Position numbers and translations under genes: made by a program
Assembly (NCBI GenBank): GCA_934230415.1
Contig: CAKQEW010000004.1
Coordinates: forward strand, 1,445-65,444
DNA from: an uncultured Alphaproteobacteria bacterium
GTDB lineage: Bacteria > Pseudomonadota > Alphaproteobacteria > Rs-D84
Direction: 5' to 3'
Length of the DNA stretch: 64,000 nucleotides
Notes under the pieces: model-generated
Seen by the model: only the letters and a program-made list of their open reading frames with translations
The model's database searches: none
What the model was told of the DNA's origin: nothing
In this document: positions 10,580 through 25,017 of the stretch, in pieces
How positions within the stretch are numbered: position 1 is the stretch's first letter
Layout: every line of letters starts with the position of its first letter

Positions 10580-10757
10580 TGACATGGGGTGTTCCCATGT
10601 CGGGGATTCAAGACCCCATTAAAACCAGCGTCCATGTGACGATAAAAAACTCCAACACCCACACGGGTTGGAGGGCTGCGAATATATTGAATAAGCACGC
10701 TATAACTGGTTTTATAGTCTTGAACCTCCAACCACCTGAATATTTCGGTGGTTTTTT
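10580..10757 (+). ncRNA. Candidate attenuator-like leader / sRNA, copy A
   Basis: Possible promoter TTGATT-17-TAGCAT (10545-10573). 5' hairpin CATGGG-gtgtt-CCCATG, hairpin CUCCAAC..GGUUGGAG, second CCUCCAACC overlapping terminator AACCACC-loop-GGUGGUU-U6. Homologous to 17485-17654 on the minus strand. Confidence 0.4.
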
Positions 10758-10778
10758 AATGTCACAGGGGGGCCAGTG

Positions 10779-11567
10779 ATGTTTGCAAAAAAATTACTTA
10801 TACCAATAATGATTTTGGCGTTGTCGCCGGCATTTGCCGCGAATTGCGAGGTTTCATTGATAGAGACAACCGATGCCAGCACGACCGGTATTACAAACTG
10901 CATCAATGGTGAATTATACCAATTTGGCAGCAATGTGTTTGAATCATGTCTGGATTGTAAACCTGGTGTCAAGAGCATAGAAACAACATACGTATCCAGC
11001 AGTTGCAACCAATCCACAACACGGGTAATTTGCGCCACCACATGCACATCGGAATTGGGCGCCGAAACCAGCACGGTTGGATGCGACCTGGCCGAGGTAT
11101 ATAATTTTGGTGGCGGGTCGTACACAACGTGCAAACAATGCTCAAATGGATATAAGGCCCAAACCGACACGTACACGGATTTACAGTGCACAAACACTGT
11201 GACGTATACCAAATGCGTGGTTGACCCGACTGCCGAATGTACCGATGATTCTGATTGTGATGATGTCCTAGAGACGCCTGATTCCACTGGGCGTGCCCTG
11301 GCACGGACGGGTGGATATTGCAGTGGCGGTGAATGTGCATATCAGGATGAATATTATGTCTGTGTGGCCGGTTATTATGGCAATGGTGAAACATGTACAA
11401 AATGCCCCGCCAGTGCCGATGGCGCGACCGTGACGACGTTCTTTGAAACGACACCGACCTTGTCGTGGACCACAGATGTTCGTGGGTGCTTTATTGCCAA
11501 GGATACCACGGGAACCGACACGGCGGGTTCATTTATATATGAAAACAAGTGCAGTTATTCAGAATAA
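10779..11567 (+). CDS. Secreted cysteine-rich repeat protein (CxxC / furin- or TNFR-like repeats)
   Basis: Signal peptide ...LALSPAFA. About 30 Cys occur in recurring C-x2-C..GY contexts (CLDCKPG, CKQCSNGY, CTKCPAS). Confidence 0.7.
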   Translation: MFAKKLLIPIMILALSPAFAANCEVSLIETTDASTTGITNCINGELYQFGSNVFESCLDCKPGVKSIETTYVSSSCNQSTTRVICATTCTSELGAETSTVGCDLAEVYNFGGGSYTTCKQCSNGYKAQTDTYTDLQCTNTVTYTKCVVDPTAECTDDSDCDDVLETPDSTGRALARTGGYCSGGECAYQDEYYVCVAGYYGNGETCTKCPASADGATVTTFFETTPTLSWTTDVRGCFIAKDTTGTDTAGSFIYENKCSYSE

Positions 11568-17121: not shown

Positions 17122-17466
17122 TTATCGTTTCAATAATTCACTGCGCAATTCGCGGGTGTTGCGCACAATTGTGCCAATCATTTGCTCTATCTTGTCATAA
17201 TCCAGAACGCGACATGGTGCATTTGGAAACCCATTTTCAAAGAATGGTGCGACGGATATTTCCATTGCGTCTGCGAATTGACACATACGCCACAGGGAAA
17301 TACGGCTGTCGCCAGATTCGTATTTTTGAACCTGTTGAAATGTTATTCCGGTACGCGTGGCCAGTTCTTTTTGTGTAATCCCCATCATCAGTCGCGCCCG
17401 GCGCAGGAACAATCCGGCCTGGCGGTTAAATTCATTTTCAGCCATGGTTTTTGTAATCGCGGTCAT
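17122..17466 (-). CDS. XRE-family HTH transcriptional regulator
   Basis: LRRARLMMGITQKELATRTGITFQQVQKYESG is a classic HTH_3 motif. Confidence 0.8.
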   Translation of the reverse strand: MTAITKTMAENEFNRQAGLFLRRARLMMGITQKELATRTGITFQQVQKYESGDSRISLWRMCQFADAMEISVAPFFENGFPNAPCRVLDYDKIEQMIGTIVRNTRELRSELLKR

Positions 17467-17484
17467 ATTTCCCCCATATATAAA

Positions 17485-17654
17485 ATAAAAACCACCAGAT
17501 ACATTCGGGTGGTTGGAGGTTAAGAACTAAGCAAGATGTTAGTGCTGTTTATTTGATATTCAACAGCCCTCCAACCGACGGTTGGAGGTTTTTTGTGTCC
17601 CCACGGACAATCTTGCCGGAGTTCTTACACCCCACAATGGTAACACACCATTGC
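17485..17654 (-). ncRNA. Candidate attenuator-like leader / sRNA, copy B
   Basis: Minus-strand promoter TTGTGT-17-TATAAT (-10 at 17661-17666). 5' hairpin CAATGGT-gtgt-TACCATTG, perfect 9-bp hairpin CCUCCAACC-guc-GGUUGGAGG, second CCUCCAACC, terminator plus U-run ending ~18 nt before the XRE start codon. Confidence 0.45.
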
Positions 17655-17698
17655 GCACATATTATACAATCTGGGGCGTAAAAACACAAGGAATCATT

Positions 17699-17881
17699 AA
17701 AAAAAACGCCGCCGGTCGCCCGGCGGTGTTTCCGAATGCCCTGAAAGGAAGGAAAGGAGAAAAAGAAATGGGCATTCTAAACTAAATTGGGTTGGGGCCC
17801 AGAGTCCAGAGGAGAGAGAATGTAGGAGGGAGTCTGAATCCCTGAACCCCGTGTCAATCGGGTTTGCACCCCCTTTTGACG
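17699..17881 (-). ncRNA. Candidate sRNA C with pyrimidine-rich (anti-SD-like) loop
   Basis: Minus-strand TTGACA (17911-17916)-17-TACATT (17888-17893). An 8-bp stem GAAUGCCC/GGGCAUUC encloses the loop AUUUCUUUUUCUCCUUUCCUUCCUUUCA. Strong terminator CACCGCCGG-loop-CCGGCGGCG-U8 at 17699-17728. Confidence 0.3.
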
Positions 17882-17909
17882 AATCGAAATGTAATACAAA
17901 TTTTTTCAT

Positions 17910-17945
17910 TTGTCAAGATTAATTGTCAAAAAATTTTTTTGACAA
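17910..17945. promoter_or_regulatory. TTGTCAA / TTGACAA half-site cluster including a 23-nt palindrome
   Basis: TTGTCAA at 17910 and 17923; TTGTCAAAAAATTTTTTTGACAA at 17923-17945. Lies between candidate sRNA C and the repressor-like gene. Confidence 0.3.
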
Positions 17946-18079: not shown

Positions 18080-18322
18080 ATGACACACGAAGATGTATGG
18101 CGCGCCATAGAACGTTTCGCCAATGAACACGGAATGTCGTGTTCGGGTCTGGCCAAGTGCAGTGGGTTGGATCCGACCACATTTAATCGCAGTAAACGCT
18201 ATTCGCGCGCGGGGCAACCGCGCTGGCCATCAACCAACAGCATTTCAAAGATACTGTCATCCACTGGGGCGAATATCGCGGATTTTACCAAGTTTATTGA
18301 AAAATGTCCGGGTCACGATTAA
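18080..18322 (+). CDS. Short HTH protein resembling the N-terminal domain of alphaproteobacterial S24/LexA-like prophage repressors
   Basis: VWRAIERFANEHGMSCSGLAKCSGLDPTTFNRSKR....RWPSTNSISKIL. No S24 peptidase domain follows. Confidence 0.6.
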   Translation: MTHEDVWRAIERFANEHGMSCSGLAKCSGLDPTTFNRSKRYSRAGQPRWPSTNSISKILSSTGANIADFTKFIEKCPGHD

Positions 18323-18831
18323 ATCTGGGTATGTTTTTACAAATGTCACCGCGGGCGCGTCCTGCGGTGATTTTTATGGACAATCGGGCACACGTCGTTT
18401 ATCCTGGACATATGTTAACAGGAATTCGGATTTATTCATCTGATAAAATATGGCGGCATGTGCTGGCCAATCTGAATGCAACGGTACTGGATGCGCCGGA
18501 CGTGACCGCGGTGAATATGGATGATTTGGATGTGCGTTCGCAATGCACCCCCACGGAATTAAAGGCGGCAATTCTGGGCGCGATGGATAACAGCGATATT
18601 ATTCGCGGTGTATTTGGGCGTGATGTCGCATTGGCCCGAATCCCGCGCCAGATTATAATATTGTTGGCGCAAACGGGTGGTATGCGCGCCGCAGATCTGA
18701 AGGTTGCCCTGGGGTATTCCCCAAATGCCACAACGCATACGGTGGATACGGCGATATATCAACTGCGCCGGACATTCGGACATAACATCGTTCAAAATGA
18801 AAATGGGGTGTATAAAATTGGCCGGATATAA
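18304..18831 (+). CDS. Putative winged-helix (OmpR/PhoB C-terminal-like) DNA-binding protein; start uncertain
   Basis: C-terminal TVDTAIYQLRRTFGHNIVQNENGVYKIG resembles the Trans_reg_C recognition helix and wing. Several in-frame Met candidates (18376, 18412). Confidence 0.45.
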   Translation: MSGSRLNLGMFLQMSPRARPAVIFMDNRAHVVYPGHMLTGIRIYSSDKIWRHVLANLNATVLDAPDVTAVNMDDLDVRSQCTPTELKAAILGAMDNSDIIRGVFGRDVALARIPRQIIILLAQTGGMRAADLKVALGYSPNATTHTVDTAIYQLRRTFGHNIVQNENGVYKIGRI

Positions 18832-19486
18832 ACTGATTTCATTTGATAAAATTCCCAGTACCCAGACATATGCCATGGATATGGTCGCACGTGGTATCGC
18901 GCGCGACCACACCGTCGTCATGGCCGAAGCGCAATCGGCGGGGCGTGGGCGGTATCGCCGGACATGGGTGTCGCATCATGGTAACCTGTACGCCAGTTTT
19001 ATTTATCACGCCGAAGAACGCAATCCGAAATTATCATATATGGTCGCGGTTGCAATTGCGGAAACGATTTTGTCGTTTGGTATAACGCCATCAATCAAAT
19101 GGCCGAACGATATTCTGATTGATGGGAAAAAGGTCTGTGGTGTTCTGATTGAATATGCCGGCGCATTTGTAATTGTGGGAATTGGCATAAACATCAAATC
19201 AAACCCAACGGTCGCAGAAAACAAGACAACAAAATTGGAAAATTACGCCGATGTCCAGAAATCAGAATTACTGACGCGCCTGATGCGTAACTTGGATAAA
19301 TGGATGCGTACCGATTTTGTTAATGTGCGTGCACGTTGGATGGAATTGGCCGCCGGTCTGCACAAGATTGTAAAGTACCGGGGCGAGGCCGTTGAACTGA
19401 TTGGTATTAACGATAATGGTGCGCTGGTTTTGCGACGTGATACAGAATATTTCTTGGCATATGGTGATGAAATCAGTATGAAATAA
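18803..19486 (+). CDS. birA: Biotin--[acetyl-CoA-carboxylase] ligase
   Basis: SFDKIPSTQTY, AEAQSAGRGRYRRTWVS (GRGRxGR motif), KWPNDILIDGKKVCGVLIE. Confidence 0.85.
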   Translation: MGCIKLAGYKLISFDKIPSTQTYAMDMVARGIARDHTVVMAEAQSAGRGRYRRTWVSHHGNLYASFIYHAEERNPKLSYMVAVAIAETILSFGITPSIKWPNDILIDGKKVCGVLIEYAGAFVIVGIGINIKSNPTVAENKTTKLENYADVQKSELLTRLMRNLDKWMRTDFVNVRARWMELAAGLHKIVKYRGEAVELIGINDNGALVLRRDTEYFLAYGDEISMK

Positions 19487-19530
19487 ATGCCAGATTTCTG
19501 CGGGTTGTGGGGCGTGTCAAAAATACACGC

Positions 19531-19559
19531 TTGACTTTTATTGCGATTTGTGATACTAT
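19531..19559 (+). promoter_or_regulatory. Consensus-like promoter TTGACT-17-TACTAT
   Basis: -35 at 19531-19536, -10 at 19554-19559, 17-nt spacer. Confidence 0.5.
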
Positions 19560-19585
19560 ATGACACATCAACAAGCAAGATTCTG

Positions 19586-19607
19586 TCCGCATATAGCGGA
19601 TTTTTTT
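19586..19607 (+). terminator. Intrinsic terminator 1 upstream of the lysis genes
   Basis: TCCGC-atata-GCGGA followed by T7. Confidence 0.55.
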
Positions 19608-19619
19608 ATGCTGTTTTTT

Positions 19620-19648
19620 GACCGCGAATTTCATCGCGGTCTTTTTTT
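19620..19648 (+). terminator. Intrinsic terminator 2 upstream of the lysis genes
   Basis: 8-bp stem GACCGCGA-atttca-TCGCGGTC followed by T7. Only 24 nt remain before the endolysin ATG. Confidence 0.8.
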
Positions 19649-19671
19649 ACGCAATACGGGGGAAAATAAAA

Positions 19672-20076
19672 ATGGAACTGATTTTGAATCCAGACCATAC
19701 GCGTGGCGATGCATACAAAATTGCGCGTGTTGTTTATGCCGAAACAGGTGCGACATCGTTGCCATTGGTTGAAGGATTCGCATCAATGATTGCAAATATC
19801 GCACGTGCACGTGGTATATCACCCGTAATGGTTGTGTCTGATGAAAATACGTTTGGTGCGCTGCGTCCGAATAATTCGCGTCATGGCGCATTAAATGTAC
19901 GGCCAGATTCACGTGCGTTTCAAATGTGCCTGCGTGTGGTGACGCGAATGCTGCATGGAAATTTACCAGATTGCTGTAATGGCGCAACACGTTTCCATCG
20001 TGATGATGAAATGCCAGATTGGGCAACATCGCGTGGATATATCGCCGATATTGATGGTGTGCTGTTTTATTTGTAG
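19672..20076 (+). CDS. Cell-wall hydrolase, SleB / Hydrolase_2 family (endolysin)
   Basis: IARVVYAETGATS...MIANIARARG...ATRFHRDDEMPDWA pattern of SleB-type amidase/lysin domains. Confidence 0.75.
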   Translation: MELILNPDHTRGDAYKIARVVYAETGATSLPLVEGFASMIANIARARGISPVMVVSDENTFGALRPNNSRHGALNVRPDSRAFQMCLRVVTRMLHGNLPDCCNGATRFHRDDEMPDWATSRGYIADIDGVLFYL

Positions 20077-20086
20077 TGGTGGTGAT

Positions 20087-20290
20087 ATGCAAAAAATAAT
20101 TAATGGTGGTTTTTTGTCGGACCGGCGCACGCAAATAATGTCATGTGTTGGCGTGTTATCAGCGGTGGCGGCATATGTGGTCGGTGACACGGATGTGTTT
20201 GTCATGTTACAGACGATATTCACATTGGGTGGAATTTATTTTATGAACAAACAAAAAAACAAAGGACATGATGATGGAACAAATTCCTGA
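20087..20290 (+). CDS. Holin-like small membrane protein (two predicted TM helices)
   Basis: 67 aa; GGTGGTGA RBS; hydrophobic stretches IMSCVGVLSAVAAYVV and VFVMLQTIFTLGGIYFM; charged C-terminus; lies directly after the endolysin. Confidence 0.5.
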   Translation: MQKIINGGFLSDRRTQIMSCVGVLSAVAAYVVGDTDVFVMLQTIFTLGGIYFMNKQKNKGHDDGTNS

Positions 20291-20930
20291 AAAATTTAAA
20301 AATTCTGATGGAACATTAAACACAGATGCATTATTGAAATCTTATTCTGAATTGGAAAAGAAAATCGGAACGATGATATCAATACCATCATCCGACAGTG
20401 ATGATGCCGCGCGTGCACGATTTAATCATGCAATTGGTGTGCCCGAATCGGCCGATGAATATCCACAAAATGATTTGTTTGATGATGCTGATGTGCGTAA
20501 AAAATTCTGGGACATAGGTTTAACTTCATCCCAGGTTGAAAAAATTTATCAGGTTGCCCAGGATTTTTTATCACCTGTGTTGTCTGATTTATTTACAGCA
20601 CAACAAACAGAATCAGCAATATCAGAATTGCGAAATTATTTTGGTGGTGATGAAAAAATGCAAACGGCAATGCGTGAAATAAATGCGTTTGGTACGCGTT
20701 TCTTGCCCGCGGATGCGTTTGATGAATTATGTTCCAGTCCCCAGGGAATCCAAGGTGTTTATCAAATGATGCAATCAATGGAACCACATGTACAAACGTC
20801 CGATGCGAATGATACAAATTTATCAGATAATGATTTGCGACGCATGATGCGTAATCCAAAATATTGGCGCGATCATGATTCTGAATACGTGCGAAAAATT
20901 GAAAACGGTTTTAAAAAATTATATTCGTGA
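20268..20930 (+). CDS. Putative phage scaffolding protein
   Basis: N-terminus IPEKFKNSDGTLNTDALLKSYSELEKKIG recalls podovirus scaffold/assembly proteins. Acidic and helical; positioned before the capsid gene. Confidence 0.5.
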   Translation: MMMEQIPEKFKNSDGTLNTDALLKSYSELEKKIGTMISIPSSDSDDAARARFNHAIGVPESADEYPQNDLFDDADVRKKFWDIGLTSSQVEKIYQVAQDFLSPVLSDLFTAQQTESAISELRNYFGGDEKMQTAMREINAFGTRFLPADAFDELCSSPQGIQGVYQMMQSMEPHVQTSDANDTNLSDNDLRRMMRNPKYWRDHDSEYVRKIENGFKKLYS

Positions 20931-21036
20931 TGAAAAATTTTCACTTTCTTCTTTACTAACTTTTATGTTTCATATAAAATATAAAGTAAGAACAAAAAAA
21001 TTTGTTCTATCCAAAAAAATATAAAAGGAGAGAAGA

Positions 21037-21387
21037 ATGGCATTCACATTCTTGAAACCAGCAGCGAAAAAAATTGCTGCGAAAAAACCGGCTGCAAAAC
21101 CAGCAGCAAAAAAAACTGTTGCAAAACCAGCTGCTAAAAAAGTAGCGGCGAAACCAGCAGCAAAGAAAGTTGCGGTTAAAAAGCCAGCGGCGAAAAAACC
21201 AGTCGCAAAGAAAGTCGTTGCGAAAAAACCGGTTGCTAAAAAACCAGTCGCAAAGAAAGTTGTTGCGAAAAAGCCAGCGGCAAAAAAGCCAGTTGCAGTG
21301 AAAAAACCAGTTGCTAAAAAAGCACCTGCGAAAAAAGTCGCTGTGAAAAAGCCTGTTGCGAAAAAAGCACCGGCCAAGAAAAAATAA
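21037..21387 (+). CDS. Lys/Ala/Pro-rich histone H1-like protein (AKKPAAKK repeats)
   Basis: 116 aa made almost entirely of degenerate (P/V)AAKK(P/V)(A/V) repeats. Strong RBS AAGGAGAG; own terminators downstream. Confidence 0.75.
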
Positions 21388-21396
21388 TAAATATTT

Positions 21397-21419
21397 CCCC
21401 ATCGTTTGATGGGGTTTTT
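21397..21419 (+). terminator. Intrinsic terminator
   Basis: ccccatcgtttgatgggg plus T5. Confidence 0.75.
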
Positions 21420-21432
21420 AATTGAAAAAATT

Positions 21433-21468
21433 TTCAGTCGTATCATGTATGCGACTGAATCTTTTTTT
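21433..21468 (+). terminator. Second tandem intrinsic terminator
   Basis: TTCAGTCG-11 nt-CGACTGAA followed by cT7. Confidence 0.65.
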
Positions 21469-21597
21469 ACGGACAATTTCGGGTAACCGAAACCCGCATG
21501 TGTTTGTCATGTGGCGCGATTTCGCATAACCGTGTGATGAATTTTTGTCGGCGCATTTTTGCGTCTGTTTTTATTTATAACCAATGGGGGATTTTTT

Positions 21598-22428
21598 ATG
21601 TCTGTTTCCATAGATAATGTTTTTATTAAACAGTTTGAGGCAGATGTTCATCTGGCATATCAACAGATGGGCACAAAACTGCGCGGGACCGTACGCAGCA
21701 AATCGGGTGTCGTCGGTGCATCCACAACATTTCAAAAGGTTGGACGCGGAACCGCGGCAACAAAATCACGTCATGGCATTGTGCCGGTTATGAACCTGAA
21801 CCATGAACCGGTGGAATGCACATTACAGGATTATTATGCCGGCGATTGGGTTGATGCATTGGATGAATTGAAAACCAATGTTGATGAACGCCGTGTCGTG
21901 GCATGTGCCGGTGCGTACGCGTTGGGTCGCAAAACCGATGAATTGATTGTGAACGCAATGTCGGGCGCAACAACATCGGTTGGTGATTATTCCCAGGGAT
22001 TAAGTAAATCGCTGATTTTATCCGCGGTTGAACAATTAAATGCCAAAGATATCCCAGATGATGGCCGCCGTTTCGCGGTTGTTGGCGTGCACCAGTGGAA
22101 TGAATTACTGGGGATTAACGAATTTGTTTCTGCGGATTACGTTGGTGATGATTTGCCATTGATTTCTGGGGGCGCATCCAAAAAATGGTTGGGTATCACA
22201 TGGGTTCTGTACAACGCATTGCCGTTGACCAGCACGACCCAGCGTGATTGCTTTATTTACCACGCAACCAGTATCGGTCATGCCTGTGGCCAGGAAGTCA
22301 AAACAGATATTTCATGGCATGGTGAACGTGCGGCGCACTTTATCAGCAACAGTATGTCCCAGGGCGCCGTTCTGATTGATGGTGATGGTATCGTTCGTAT
22401 TAAATGCAAAGATACCGATGCCGATTAA
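21598..22428 (+). CDS. Putative major capsid protein
   Basis: 277 aa after the scaffold gene. N-terminus FIKQFEADVHLAYQQMGTKLRGTVR..., as recalled from podovirus capsid proteins. The assignment rests mainly on gene position. Confidence 0.55.
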   Translation: MSVSIDNVFIKQFEADVHLAYQQMGTKLRGTVRSKSGVVGASTTFQKVGRGTAATKSRHGIVPVMNLNHEPVECTLQDYYAGDWVDALDELKTNVDERRVVACAGAYALGRKTDELIVNAMSGATTSVGDYSQGLSKSLILSAVEQLNAKDIPDDGRRFAVVGVHQWNELLGINEFVSADYVGDDLPLISGGASKKWLGITWVLYNALPLTSTTQRDCFIYHATSIGHACGQEVKTDISWHGERAAHFISNSMSQGAVLIDGDGIVRIKCKDTDAD

Positions 22429-22463
22429 TGTTCCACATAAATAAACAACCAAAGGAAAAATAA

Positions 22464-22694
22464 ATGGCGTTTCAGAATAAAAATCTGTCTGTAATTGCAT
22501 ATGCAAATGGTTTTACATTGTGGCACTATGCGGAAAACACGACATTGGCAACAATCACGGCCAGTGGGTATTTTAACAATGTCAAAACACTGATGAACGA
22601 TGGCGATATTGTGATTATTAATGCGTCGGATAAAACGGCGATTAAATCCATCGCGATTGCATCTGGGGCGGTTACAACGGCGGCATTGTCGTAA
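22464..22694 (+). CDS. Small virion-module protein (76 aa)
   Basis: Compact ORF between the capsid and tubular A-like genes (SVIAYANGFTLWHY...GDIVIINA). Confidence 0.5.
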   Translation: MAFQNKNLSVIAYANGFTLWHYAENTTLATITASGYFNNVKTLMNDGDIVIINASDKTAIKSIAIASGAVTTAALS

Positions 22695-22754
22695 ATTTTA
22701 TCGGTATTTTATATATGGGTCGGTGTTCGCGCCGGCCCTGTTTTAATCAAAGGA

Positions 22755-23282
22755 ATGATAGGTATGCTGACCAAAATAGATTTATGTTCCATGGCGTTAC
22801 TGAAACTGGGTGAACGTCCGATACAATCGTTGGTTGATGACAGTGCGGCCGCACAACTGGCGCGGACGTTGTTTGATCCGGTGATTGATGCATTGATTGC
22901 GGCGCATCCGTGGCGATTTGCCACGCGCCAAATTCATATGGTAAAAAATTCAGATGGGGATTTTTTAATCCCGGCGGATGTATTACGCGTGATAAAAACG
23001 TGTGGCGATATTGTTGGCAATAAAATTCATGCCCCCACAGATACGATGGATATTGTTGCGTTGGTACGCGTTGCCCCGGATGCATTCCCGGCGTATTTTG
23101 TGTCAGTGGCGGCAACGCGATTGGCCATGGAATTCTGTGTGCCATTGACCGGTGACCAGAATGTATTTCGCATGTTGGCGGCACTGTATGAATCAGAATT
23201 ACAATCGGCGAAATTCACAGACAGTACCACAGCACCGGCGCATGCCATTGATAATTTTTCATTGCTGAATGCACGGTTTTAA
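22755..23282 (+). CDS. Tail tubular protein A / adaptor-like
   Basis: IDLCSMALLKLGERPIQSLVDDSAAAQLARTLFDPVIDALIAAHPWRFA pattern seen in gp11-like proteins of BPP-1/T7-type podoviruses, in the expected position. Confidence 0.55.
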   Translation: MIGMLTKIDLCSMALLKLGERPIQSLVDDSAAAQLARTLFDPVIDALIAAHPWRFATRQIHMVKNSDGDFLIPADVLRVIKTCGDIVGNKIHAPTDTMDIVALVRVAPDAFPAYFVSVAATRLAMEFCVPLTGDQNVFRMLAALYESELQSAKFTDSTTAPAHAIDNFSLLNARF

Positions 23283-23297
23283 TTTCGGGGGACAATT

Positions 23298-24995
23298 ATG
23301 GGAAATTTCGTAAAAACACAAAATTCGTTTGCCAACGGCGACATTGCCCCAGAATTTTATGGCAACGATAATTTGCACGCGTTGTCACGTCTGGAAAATA
23401 TGGACGTGATGGCGGGCGGTGGGCTGTGCCGACGTGCCGGTTTGACCACGGTTACAGAAATTGCATCAGGGGCGCGACTGGTGCCGTTTTCGGCGGGTAT
23501 GTCCCAGAATTACCTGGTGGCGTTGTTGCCGGGACATATGTACCTGTATTATGGTGGCGTGCGTATCCAAGATATTGTTGCGCCATGGACCGCCGATGAC
23601 ATAGCGTCTGTTCAATATGCCCAGCGTTTTGATACCATGATTTTCGTGCATCCAGAATACAGTCCGCGAATACTGCGCCGTCGGGCATCGCAATTCACGT
23701 TGGATGAATTTGCATTTGCGCGAAATGATGCCGATATGTCACGTGCCCAGCCATTCATGCGATTTGATGATACGTCTGATATCACGATTACTGTTACGGC
23801 ACATGCCAGTGGTAATAACTATGCCACATTTACAACCAACCGTGCGTTTTGGAATTCAAATTATGTGAATACGCGCATATTTGCCATGGACCGGCAATGG
23901 ATAATCCAAGAGGTCACAGATTCCACCACCGCCAAGGCATATACCAATGGGCCGTTCACATTGCCATCTGCGCCAATATCAGAATGGCGTGAATCGGCAT
24001 TCAGTGCCGCACGCGGTTGGCCCGTCAGTATCACGTTTCACCAGGACCGTCTGGTATTCGGTGGGTCGCGTGATTATCCGGCGGGCGTATGGATGTCGCG
24101 TACCGGTGCACACACGAACTTTGATGTCGGCACCGGATTGGATGACCAGGCGATTTTTATCACGTTGCTGTCCAGTCAACGTCAACAGATTTGCACCGTG
24201 GTCAGCAGTGATAATCTGCAAATCCTGACCACAGTTGGCGAATGGGCGATTTCCAGCAAACCATTGACACCATCGTCGGTTGACATAAAGCAACACACGT
24301 CTGTGGGCAGTATTGCCACGCGTTTCCTGGCCCCGCAAAAGATAGAGGGCGCAACCGTATTCGTATCCAGAACCGGTCGCGATATTCGCGAATTGGATTT
24401 GGATGAATTAGGCGAAAATTACAACGCCACAGATTTATGCGCGTTTTCAAAACACCTGGTGCAATCGCCGGTTGATATCGCGTACAACAGTGCTGTGCGC
24501 CAAATGTTCGTTGTTCGCACAGATGGCAAAATGGCGGTGTTGAATCAAAACAGCGCGTTGGGGATATCGGCATGGGGACTGTACACGACCGCCGGTGAAT
24601 TCAAATCGGTTGCGGTCTGTGGCGATGAAACATTTGTGCTGGTGGCGCGCGCGGGAAAATTCTGGATTGAAAAATTTGACGCGACGCAAATGTTGGACGC
24701 GGGCGTTTATACGTTTGACGTTGTGGCGGCCGGATTGCCGCTGCGGGCGTCTGGGCATAACGCGATGCGTGTGCGTATCCGCCAGGTATCCGTACGCATA
24801 CGTGATACACGCACGTTGTTTATAAACGGTGTGCGTGCGGCATTGCCGGATGCGACCGGATTCACCGGTGATGTGGCGGTAACAACACTGGGGTGGACGC
24901 GTAATGCCACCGGTGCGCCATGGACAATTCACACAAACGAACCGTTGCCAATGACAATCATGTCGGTCGTCGTGCGCGGATATTACACAATATAA
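23298..24995 (+). CDS. Tail tubular protein B / nozzle-like
   Basis: N-terminus QNSFANGDIAPEFYGNDNLHALSRLENMDVMAGGGLCRRAGL matches the gp12-like N-terminal pattern (NxxxGxxSP...GGxxRRPG). 565 aa. Confidence 0.55.
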   Translation: MGNFVKTQNSFANGDIAPEFYGNDNLHALSRLENMDVMAGGGLCRRAGLTTVTEIASGARLVPFSAGMSQNYLVALLPGHMYLYYGGVRIQDIVAPWTADDIASVQYAQRFDTMIFVHPEYSPRILRRRASQFTLDEFAFARNDADMSRAQPFMRFDDTSDITITVTAHASGNNYATFTTNRAFWNSNYVNTRIFAMDRQWIIQEVTDSTTAKAYTNGPFTLPSAPISEWRESAFSAARGWPVSITFHQDRLVFGGSRDYPAGVWMSRTGAHTNFDVGTGLDDQAIFITLLSSQRQQICTVVSSDNLQILTTVGEWAISSKPLTPSSVDIKQHTSVGSIATRFLAPQKIEGATVFVSRTGRDIRELDLDELGENYNATDLCAFSKHLVQSPVDIAYNSAVRQMFVVRTDGKMAVLNQNSALGISAWGLYTTAGEFKSVAVCGDETFVLVARAGKFWIEKFDATQMLDAGVYTFDVVAAGLPLRASGHNAMRVRIRQVSVRIRDTRTLFINGVRAALPDATGFTGDVAVTTLGWTRNATGAPWTIHTNEPLPMTIMSVVVRGYYTI

Positions 24996-25017
24996 AAATC
25001 AACAACAGGGGGAAATA

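Follow-up and report, generated by a model that had tools for sequence, protein, structure and literature searches.

The window analysed here is a 64,000-nt stretch of DNA from an uncultured Rs-D84 alphaproteobacterium, and all coordinates are based on it. On its minus strand, a gene for a small XRE-family HTH protein is preceded by a compact unit (copy B) with promoter-like hexamers, a series of RNA helices and an intrinsic terminator. The parts of this locus are listed from upstream to downstream, together with the pairs in each helix that show compensatory changes and the percentage of cells paired.

17684-17689, minus strand: -35-like hexamer TTGTGT, identified from sequence
17661-17666, minus strand: -10 hexamer TATAAT, identified from sequence, with a 17-nt spacer to the -35
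17485-17654, minus strand: whole unit of copy B, ~170 nt, from the predicted start to the U tract; 148.2 bits with covariance model R1 (E ~1e-35)
17634-17654, minus strand: P1, the 5'-terminal hairpin GCAAUGGUG-UGU-UACCAUUGU; 8 of 8 pairs compensatory, 95.7% of cells paired
17621-17633, minus strand: 5' strand of P2 (GGGG and a variable core), with its partner at 17516-17527; 9 of 12 pairs compensatory, 94.8% of cells paired
17610-17617, minus strand: 5' strand of P3, GGCAAGAU, with its partner at 17530-17537; 6 of 6 pairs compensatory
17596-17609, minus strand: P3a, an optional hairpin of 'long-type' copies; 4 of 4 pairs compensatory, 98.7% of cells paired where present
17580-17588, minus strand: arm1, CCUCCAACC, the 5' arm of P4; 6 of 9 P4 pairs compensatory, 92.2% of cells paired
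17568-17576, minus strand: arm2, GGUUGGAGG, the strand common to both switch helices, complementary to arm1 and to motif2
17544-17567, minus strand: P4b, a hairpin with conserved unpaired GA...AAUAA; 5 of 5 pairs compensatory
17526-17543, minus strand: P5 (ACUAA / UUAGU), around the 3' strand of P3, AUCUUGCU; 95.2% of cells paired
17511-17519, minus strand: motif2, the second CCUCCAACC; it closes P2 with its CCUC and opens the terminator with its AACC, and pairing with arm2 can involve the entire motif
17487-17514, minus strand: intrinsic terminator AACCACC-CGAAUGUAUCU-GGUGGUU followed by U5; 5 of 7 pairs compensatory
17122-17466, minus strand: gene for a 114-aa XRE-family HTH protein, with its ATG at 17466 (Pfam HTH_3, E = 8.6e-12)

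Every element that the first-pass annotation had described in this unit was located, including the 5' hairpin, the second CCUCCAACC, the terminator with U5 and the perfect 9-bp hairpin CCUCCAACC-GUC-GGUUGGAGG (17588-17568, minus strand), which is P4. The Pfam match bears out its assignment of the downstream gene to the XRE family. The two promoter hexamers are present as described, with the -10 at 17661-17666. The -10 is perfect. TTGTGT agrees with TTGACA at only 3 of 6 positions, and this is why the promoter is absent from a simple promoter scan. From the sequence, the RNA is predicted to start at ~17654. The distance from the U run to the ATG, given earlier as ~18 nt, was measured as ~21 nt, and an SD sequence, GGGGG, is located at ~17474-17478. 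The calculated folding energy of the 169-nt RNA is -74 kcal/mol, compared to -43.5 kcal/mol for shuffled sequences (z = -7.8). The 9-mer CCTCCAACC occurs five times in the window against 0.30 expected, and five occurrences were reached in 0 of 100 shuffles.

The opposite strand of P4 also has a terminator-like appearance. Read on the plus strand (17568-17588), P4 in reverse complement with T6 behind it scores as a terminator-like site. No plus-strand gene ends there, and the site is therefore probably the mirror image of P4 and the A-rich linker.

Several features are found in the surroundings of copy B. Directly upstream of its promoter (17700-17916, minus strand), a promoter-like TTGACA-17-TACATT is followed by a CU-rich stretch of ~200 nt (with CUCCCUCCU and UCUCCUUUCCUUCCUUUC) and by a strong terminator, CCGCCGG-GCGA-CCGGCGG with U8 (17726-17700). 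These signals may mark a second small RNA; three related MAG loci share the region at 88% identity. A small HTH_26 gene (18080-18322, plus strand) is divergent from the leader-XRE unit. Phage-like genes are located a few kb away (~18080-25000 in the window; Phage_capsid_2 and Head-tail_con), and a weak Phage_T7_Capsid match is found in orthologous loci. The XRE gene may border a prophage-like or GTA-like region.

The window contains a second unit of the same kind (copy A), on the plus strand.

10581-10758, plus strand: copy A, same RNA family; 138.6 bits with R1
10650-10656, plus strand: arm1 of copy A
10666-10674, plus strand: arm2 of copy A
10725-10733, plus strand: motif2 of copy A
10776-11567, plus strand: gene for a 263-aa Cys-rich protein with a signal peptide

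Copies A and B can be aligned end to end. The fold of copy A (z = -5.2) has the architecture of copy B, and the gene behind it is unrelated to the XRE gene, in agreement with the first-pass annotation on both points. In a scan of the window with R1, copies A and B are the only members, and everything else scores 17 bits or less.

Copy B is a member of a previously undescribed, widespread family of structured RNAs of ~150-200 nt in gut Alphaproteobacteria with small genomes. A scan of one genome per GTDB species with the pattern GTTGGAGGGCTG-N30-60-CCTCCAACC finds at least 118 stretches, and among the matches listed 114 of 120 are true members and six are chance matches. The same pattern finds 92 further stretches in metagenomes. 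Covariance model R1, built on 57 diverse copies, identifies at least 208 distinct copies in the fetched loci. About 29 of these 208 do not match the search pattern and are therefore unbiased with respect to it.

Among the matches listed, the hosts are nearly all MAGs from rumen, hindgut, termite-gut and human samples that carry the label Candidatus Enterousia, Rickettsiales bacterium or Alphaproteobacteria bacterium. Several of these MAGs contain at least 3-4 pattern matches each. Candidatus Enterousia belongs to the uncultured order Rs-D84, with genomes of ~0.75-1 Mb that are mostly below 1 Mb (PMC12306168). One MAG labelled 'uncultured Muribaculaceae bacterium' (CAZJGX01) has typical copies on three contigs (L007, L060 and L065); its label or binning is probably wrong. 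Copy B itself is present in all six strains compared, with 98.7-100% identity. An identical XRE protein is found on human-gut metagenome contigs, with leaders that are 98.7-100% identical, and XRE orthologues with the same leader are present in three other loci (L020, L034 and L057).

Viral sequences contain almost no copies. Only one match to the pattern was found among the 2.9 million viral contigs of IMG/VR, and none in the phage genomes searched; with these counts, a phage origin was rejected. On the single viral contig (IMGVR_UViG_3300009694_001054; L127, 9520-9701), the copy precedes the gene for a 171-aa protein, which lacks a signal peptide and does not resemble HTH proteins.

A search of the entire window against Rfam 15 finds four tRNAs and nothing else. 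For copy B at E <= 10, the matches on the RNA strand are at chance level, all far below the gathering scores, and in 15 loci that together contain more than 20 copies only tRNAs are found. Literature searches on the motif strings and on noncoding RNA in Rs-D84 returned nothing relevant. The RNA family is real, conserved and undescribed. Its mechanism class, terminator/antiterminator switching, is known; the novelty lies in its architecture and regulon, in the host lineage and in the organisation in arrays.

The consensus of the family has the order -35/-10, P1, P2, P3 stacked inside P2, the optional P3a, an A-rich linker, P4, P4b, P5, AACCUCCAACC, terminator and U tract. P2 is a long-range helix, in which GRGG and a variable core pair with a second variable core and CCUC. 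The consensus of P4 is CUCCAAC / GUUGGAG. P4b carries an optional inserted stem in some copies, and its unpaired GA and AAUA are at least 90-97% conserved, which is not set by the search pattern. P5 has the consensus CACUAU / GCAAUU ... AUAG / AAUUG, and its loop is the 3' strand of P3.

This fold is supported by covariation along its whole length. In the alignment based on R1, 91.9% of the cells are paired, compared to 74.2% in shuffles, and compensatory changes are found in 43 of the 51 pairs. The covariation score is 0.48, compared to 0.16 for shuffles and 0.06-0.09 for slid registers. An alignment-free duplex test, in which the strands of each copy are paired with each other or with those of other copies, gives the same picture. 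The matched strands are more stable for P1 (-9.6 kcal/mol matched, -4.5 kcal/mol mismatched; p < 1e-37), for the variable core of P2 (-6.9 and -2.0 kcal/mol; p < 1e-37) and for P3 (-8.3 and -4.2 kcal/mol; p = 4e-38). A conserved structured domain with covariation, as expected for a riboswitch, is therefore present in this family.

P5 shows 44 double-change cells, compared to 15.4 in shuffles, with a covariation score of 0.32 against 0.17. It shares 1-3 nt with P2 and P3, and both P3 and P5 covary. The pattern of substitutions would be consistent with a kissing-type pseudoknot of P3 and P5, or with the two being alternative helices.

An RNAalifold consensus of the first alignment, which contained only P1, the arm2:motif2 helix and a 3-bp terminator, is not counted as evidence here, because the search pattern had made arm2 and motif2 invariant. 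It was replaced by the duplex test, a hand-checked consensus and re-alignment with the covariance model.

The central feature of the RNA is that arm2, GGUUGGAGG, is complementary both to the upstream arm1 (CUCCAAC) and to the downstream motif2, CCUCCAACC, which overlaps the terminator. Since the search pattern fixed arm2 and motif2, only the ~29 unbiased copies are informative on this arrangement. Coordinated variant segments are found among them: GGCGGGAGG / CCUCCUGCC / CCUCCCGCC, GGUCAGGAGG / CUCCUGG / CCUCCUGACC, GGCAGGAGU / CUCCUGUC / ACUCCUGCC, GGACUGGA / CCAGUUC / UCCAGUCC, and GGUUGGGAG with CUCCCAACC. All three segments change jointly in these variants, which indicates that the two helices are mutually exclusive, in the manner of an attenuator. 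The description of copy B as attenuator-like is well founded in this respect, as arm2 covaries with arm1 and also with the second CCUCCAACC.

The arm2:motif2 helix has double changes in 5 of its 9 pairs in one alignment (A4), compared to 0.4 in shuffles (0/500), and the mean duplex energy is -19.1 kcal/mol within copies and -13.4 kcal/mol across copies. In a second, metagenome-derived alignment (A7), the covariation of this helix is not above that of shuffles, with one double change; there are fewer variant types in this alignment, and base-pair insertions shift its columns. Mutually exclusive terminator and antiterminator helices, another hallmark of riboswitches, are found in the family, with a signal that is weak in the second alignment.

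Of the two partners of arm2, arm1 is usually the weaker one and motif2 the stronger. There are more pairs in arm2:motif2 than in P4 for 78 of 115 copies, and fewer for 4 of 115. If the arm2:motif2 helix is forced, 1.2 of the 7 terminator pairs remain, since motif2 contributes its CCUC to the base of P2 (the last pairs of this helix) and its AACC to the first pairs of the terminator stem. Energies from a model limited to nested pairs favour the terminator state, by ~8 kcal/mol on average and by ~18 kcal/mol for the two copies in the window, and an additional input is therefore required for switching. Moreover, just before the 3' strand of the terminator is made, the nested minimum free energy fold retains P4 in 96 of 115 copies, which points to 'off' as the default.

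The signals at both ends of the RNA are well conserved. A TATAAT box with at least five of six matches is present in 104 of 114 copies, and in 87 of these it ends 6-7 nt before P1. A TTGACA-like -35 (four or more of six matches), often TTTGCA, is found in 59 of the 104. At the other end, 204 of 208 copies have a U tract (five or more T among the 10 nt where the stem ends). In many short-type copies in front of XRE genes (for example L015, L027, L040 and L048; columns ~10-30 of alignment A2), the -35 is overlapped by a perfect 10-bp palindrome, ATTTGCAAAT. This palindrome could plausibly serve a dimeric HTH protein as its operator, and autoregulation would be the result.

Of 116 copies, 107 are followed by an SD sequence and a start codon, with a median distance from motif2 of 49 nt (interquartile range 44-53 nt) and typically ~20-30 nt past the terminator. 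This tight spacing leaves no room for another promoter. Among 93 downstream products, 39 form one cluster of XRE-type HTH proteins of 70-131 aa, and ~41-45 have signal peptides and belong to many families (Flg_new repeat, Cys-rich, OMP barrel, lipoproteins). Short-type RNAs (~150 nt, without P3a) are mostly located before HTH genes and long-type RNAs (~179 nt) mostly before genes for exported proteins; copy B is a long-type RNA before an XRE gene. The first-pass annotation had proposed a portable promoter-leader-terminator module or an sRNA family. This proposal is strengthened by at least 208 copies before unrelated genes in related genomes, and also by the fixed promoter position, the nearly universal U-tailed terminator and the tight distance to the start codon.

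In the reading that we prefer (probability about 0.6), these RNAs are self-contained units, each with a sigma-70-type promoter, a structured RNA of 150-200 nt and an intrinsic terminator, that would act as default-off conditional terminators in front of genes and release a stable small RNA. Termination, read-through and a trigger for the shift between them are predicted as follows. By default, P1, P2[P3[(P3a) P4 P4b]] and the terminator would form and transcription would stop; a stable small RNA capped by the 5' hairpin would be released, and the gene behind it would be silent. In the alternative state, arm2 would capture motif2 instead of arm1. The terminator would be dissolved, and RNA polymerase would enter the XRE gene, or the gene for a secreted protein in other copies. 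The weaker, early-forming P4 would guard the stronger antiterminator. The balance could be shifted by a ligand or factor at the conserved P2/P3/P5/P4b core, which is the obvious site for such an input, by temperature, or by another RNA or protein. With P2 and P3 stabilised, the CCUC would be held and termination favoured; with P2 and P3 left open, motif2 would be freed.

Some copies are organised in tandem arrays of 2-5, with a separate -35/-10 in every 33-50-nt spacer. The coordinates of the arrays are given below.

L076, 2158-3334: tandem array
L135, 157-1001: tandem array
L146, 8623-9382: tandem array
L180, 127-896: tandem array
L098, 7429-7967: tandem array
L140, 2305-2672: tandem array
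L102, 459-862: tandem array

In addition, ~10-15% of the copies have no nearby ORF. A pure cis-acting leader is not expected to have such arrangements, and the released RNA therefore probably has an additional function in itself. The self-promoted arrays also keep the sRNA-family part of the earlier proposal a full alternative.

The unit could also be primarily a stand-alone small RNA gene, with a product acting in trans, by protein binding or as a sponge. The terminator would then be constitutive, expression of the downstream gene would come only from leakage or from signals of that gene, and the complementarity between arm2 and motif2 would serve folding or processing rather than the control of read-through. 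We regard this as unlikely, although a good part of the evidence is compatible with it: every unit is equipped with a promoter and with a strong U-tailed terminator, the 5' hairpin would be protective, the terminator state is thermodynamically favoured, and the arrays and the ORF-less copies are readily explained. Furthermore, the Brt RNAs of Bartonella, with the same layout, are abundant while there is hardly any transcription of the XRE genes behind them, and antisense knock-down leads to a phenotype (PMC5387305). On the other hand, arm1, arm2 and motif2 vary together within a copy, and copies inside one array can differ in this triplet. Variant and canonical triplets are found side by side in one locus or array (L102, L076), which favours pairing within the molecule over a common target in trans, and argues against CCUCCAACC as a trans seed. 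The motifs are also located in helices rather than in loops, and ~90% of the copies are at a tight distance from an SD sequence and start codon on the same strand, with no space for another promoter. A search for an Hfq motif within the 64-kb window found none, a window of this size being uninformative on Hfq.

An intergenic repeat or mobile element comparable to a MITE or REP, with a chance promoter and hairpin and no selection on RNA structure, would account for the multiple copies, their location before unrelated genes and the arrays. It is very improbable, however, as copies within a genome are only ~65-77% identical and yet all helices are kept by compensatory changes. Moreover, the orientation and the distance to the start codon are fixed, the alignments contain no terminal inverted repeats or target duplications, the matches to viruses are limited to the one contig and include no phage genome, and copy B is carried by all six strains compared. 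A trp/his-type attenuator with a leader peptide, where the pairing is chosen by a ribosome on a short ORF, scarcely deserves consideration: the layout of three or four alternatively pairing segments would suit it, and in 93 copies arm2 has GGAGG with a GUG or UUG a few nt later, but the ORFs are 2 to 41 codons long with stops scattered from -49 to +43 relative to motif2, no conserved frame survives the indels in P4b and P5, and no conserved short ORF overlaps the first switch segment across the copies.

A more specific form of the conditional-terminator reading is offered tentatively, at odds well short of even. The family may be a new class of riboswitch or a factor-sensing attenuator, in which a pseudoknotted P2/P3/P5/P4b core would sense the signal and the terminated product would double as an abundant small RNA. 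The downstream genes, XRE regulators and exported proteins, give no metabolic clue to a ligand.

The family can be compared with several known systems. Transcription-terminating riboswitches, for example the c-di-GMP classes, have a covarying core, mutually exclusive terminator and antiterminator helices, and multiple copies before unrelated genes. The present family is similar in having a covarying multi-helix core, a possible pseudoknot, an exclusive expression platform and many copies before unrelated, non-metabolic genes. There are differences, however. The antiterminator partner, arm2, is located inside the core, each copy has its own promoter even in arrays, there is no match to an Rfam riboswitch, and the core is only a candidate for ligand binding. 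The trp-type 1:2 / 2:3 / 3:4 attenuators resemble the family in that alternative pairing of consecutive segments decides on a U-tailed terminator; in comparison, the family lacks a conserved leader peptide, and its structured core is much larger.

Among alphaproteobacterial sRNAs, CcsR ('cuckoo') and alpha-r14/NfeR1 occur in multiple or tandem copies and have CCUCC-type motifs and Rho-independent terminators. Their C-rich motifs are located in loops or single strands and act as seeds. In the present family, the C-rich motifs are instead in helices and covary with an internal partner, no loop-exposed C-rich trans seed is found, and there is no Rfam match.

The closest likeness is to the Brt/Trp system of Bartonella. 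The multi-copy RNAs Brt1-9 (Tu et al. 2016, PMC5387305) are ~200 nt long, and each is located upstream of an XRE (Trp) gene. Their fold consists of a 5' hairpin, a long helix that closes the structure, and a hairpin on the 3' side. It was proposed that they work both as sRNAs and as riboswitch-like terminators, and they were reported to be specific to Bartonella and located before XRE genes only (PMC5387305). Both systems consist of multi-copy alphaproteobacterial RNAs of similar layout with a small XRE HTH gene directly downstream. An intergenic RNA of ~200 nt before such a gene is found for copy B and for at least 39 of the 93 downstream products, the other half being exported proteins. Brt copies were located on Bartonella plasmids by means of the published primer sequences, and their RNA strand leads into the HTH gene. 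The XRE protein of the window is 35% identical (E = 1e-17) to the HTH protein behind a Brt copy on plasmid pTLV-1 of Bartonella kosoyi.

The RNAs themselves are different. R1, run with the filters off on both strands, has no match at E <= 10 to the Brt copies of two Bartonella plasmids. The sequence and the fold of Brt differ from those of the window family, and the plasmid Brt copy has no clear U tract past its 3' hairpin. Moreover, about half of the copies of the window family are located before genes for exported proteins and its hosts are Enterousia-group gut MAGs, in contrast to the XRE-only context of Brt. With R1 silent on Brt and a different fold, Brt/Trp is best described as an analogue with a related downstream protein rather than a member of the family. 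By eye, the Brt copy on pTLV-1 (L125, 886-1100, minus strand) also has three complementary segments, CCCGG-AGUU-CCGGGAG followed by AACUCCCGGAA, and CCCGGAGGGGG then forms the SD sequence of the HTH gene. Judged from these segments, the layout appears to resemble the arm1/arm2/motif2 logic.

Many of the host MAGs come from Candidatus Enterousia and its order Rs-D84, and these genomes of ~0.75-1 Mb devote several pattern-matching copies per MAG, and arrays as well, to a single RNA design. The genes behind it encode either XRE regulators or exported and surface proteins, two classes that shape interaction with the environment. This marks the RNA family as a central regulatory device of the lineage. 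It is a clean orphan RNA, as its copies number over 200 and are diverse, covariation among them is dense, the expression platform is clear and a pseudoknot is possible, and it provides a comparative handle on Bartonella Brt/Trp, the mechanism of which has been hypothetical since 2016. On the tentative reading as a riboswitch or factor-sensing attenuator, Brt/Trp would be a functional analogue based on the same three-segment logic, and the RNA would coordinate XRE regulators with surface or secreted proteins as one regulon, in gut Alphaproteobacteria that are uncultured and have genomes below 1 Mb.
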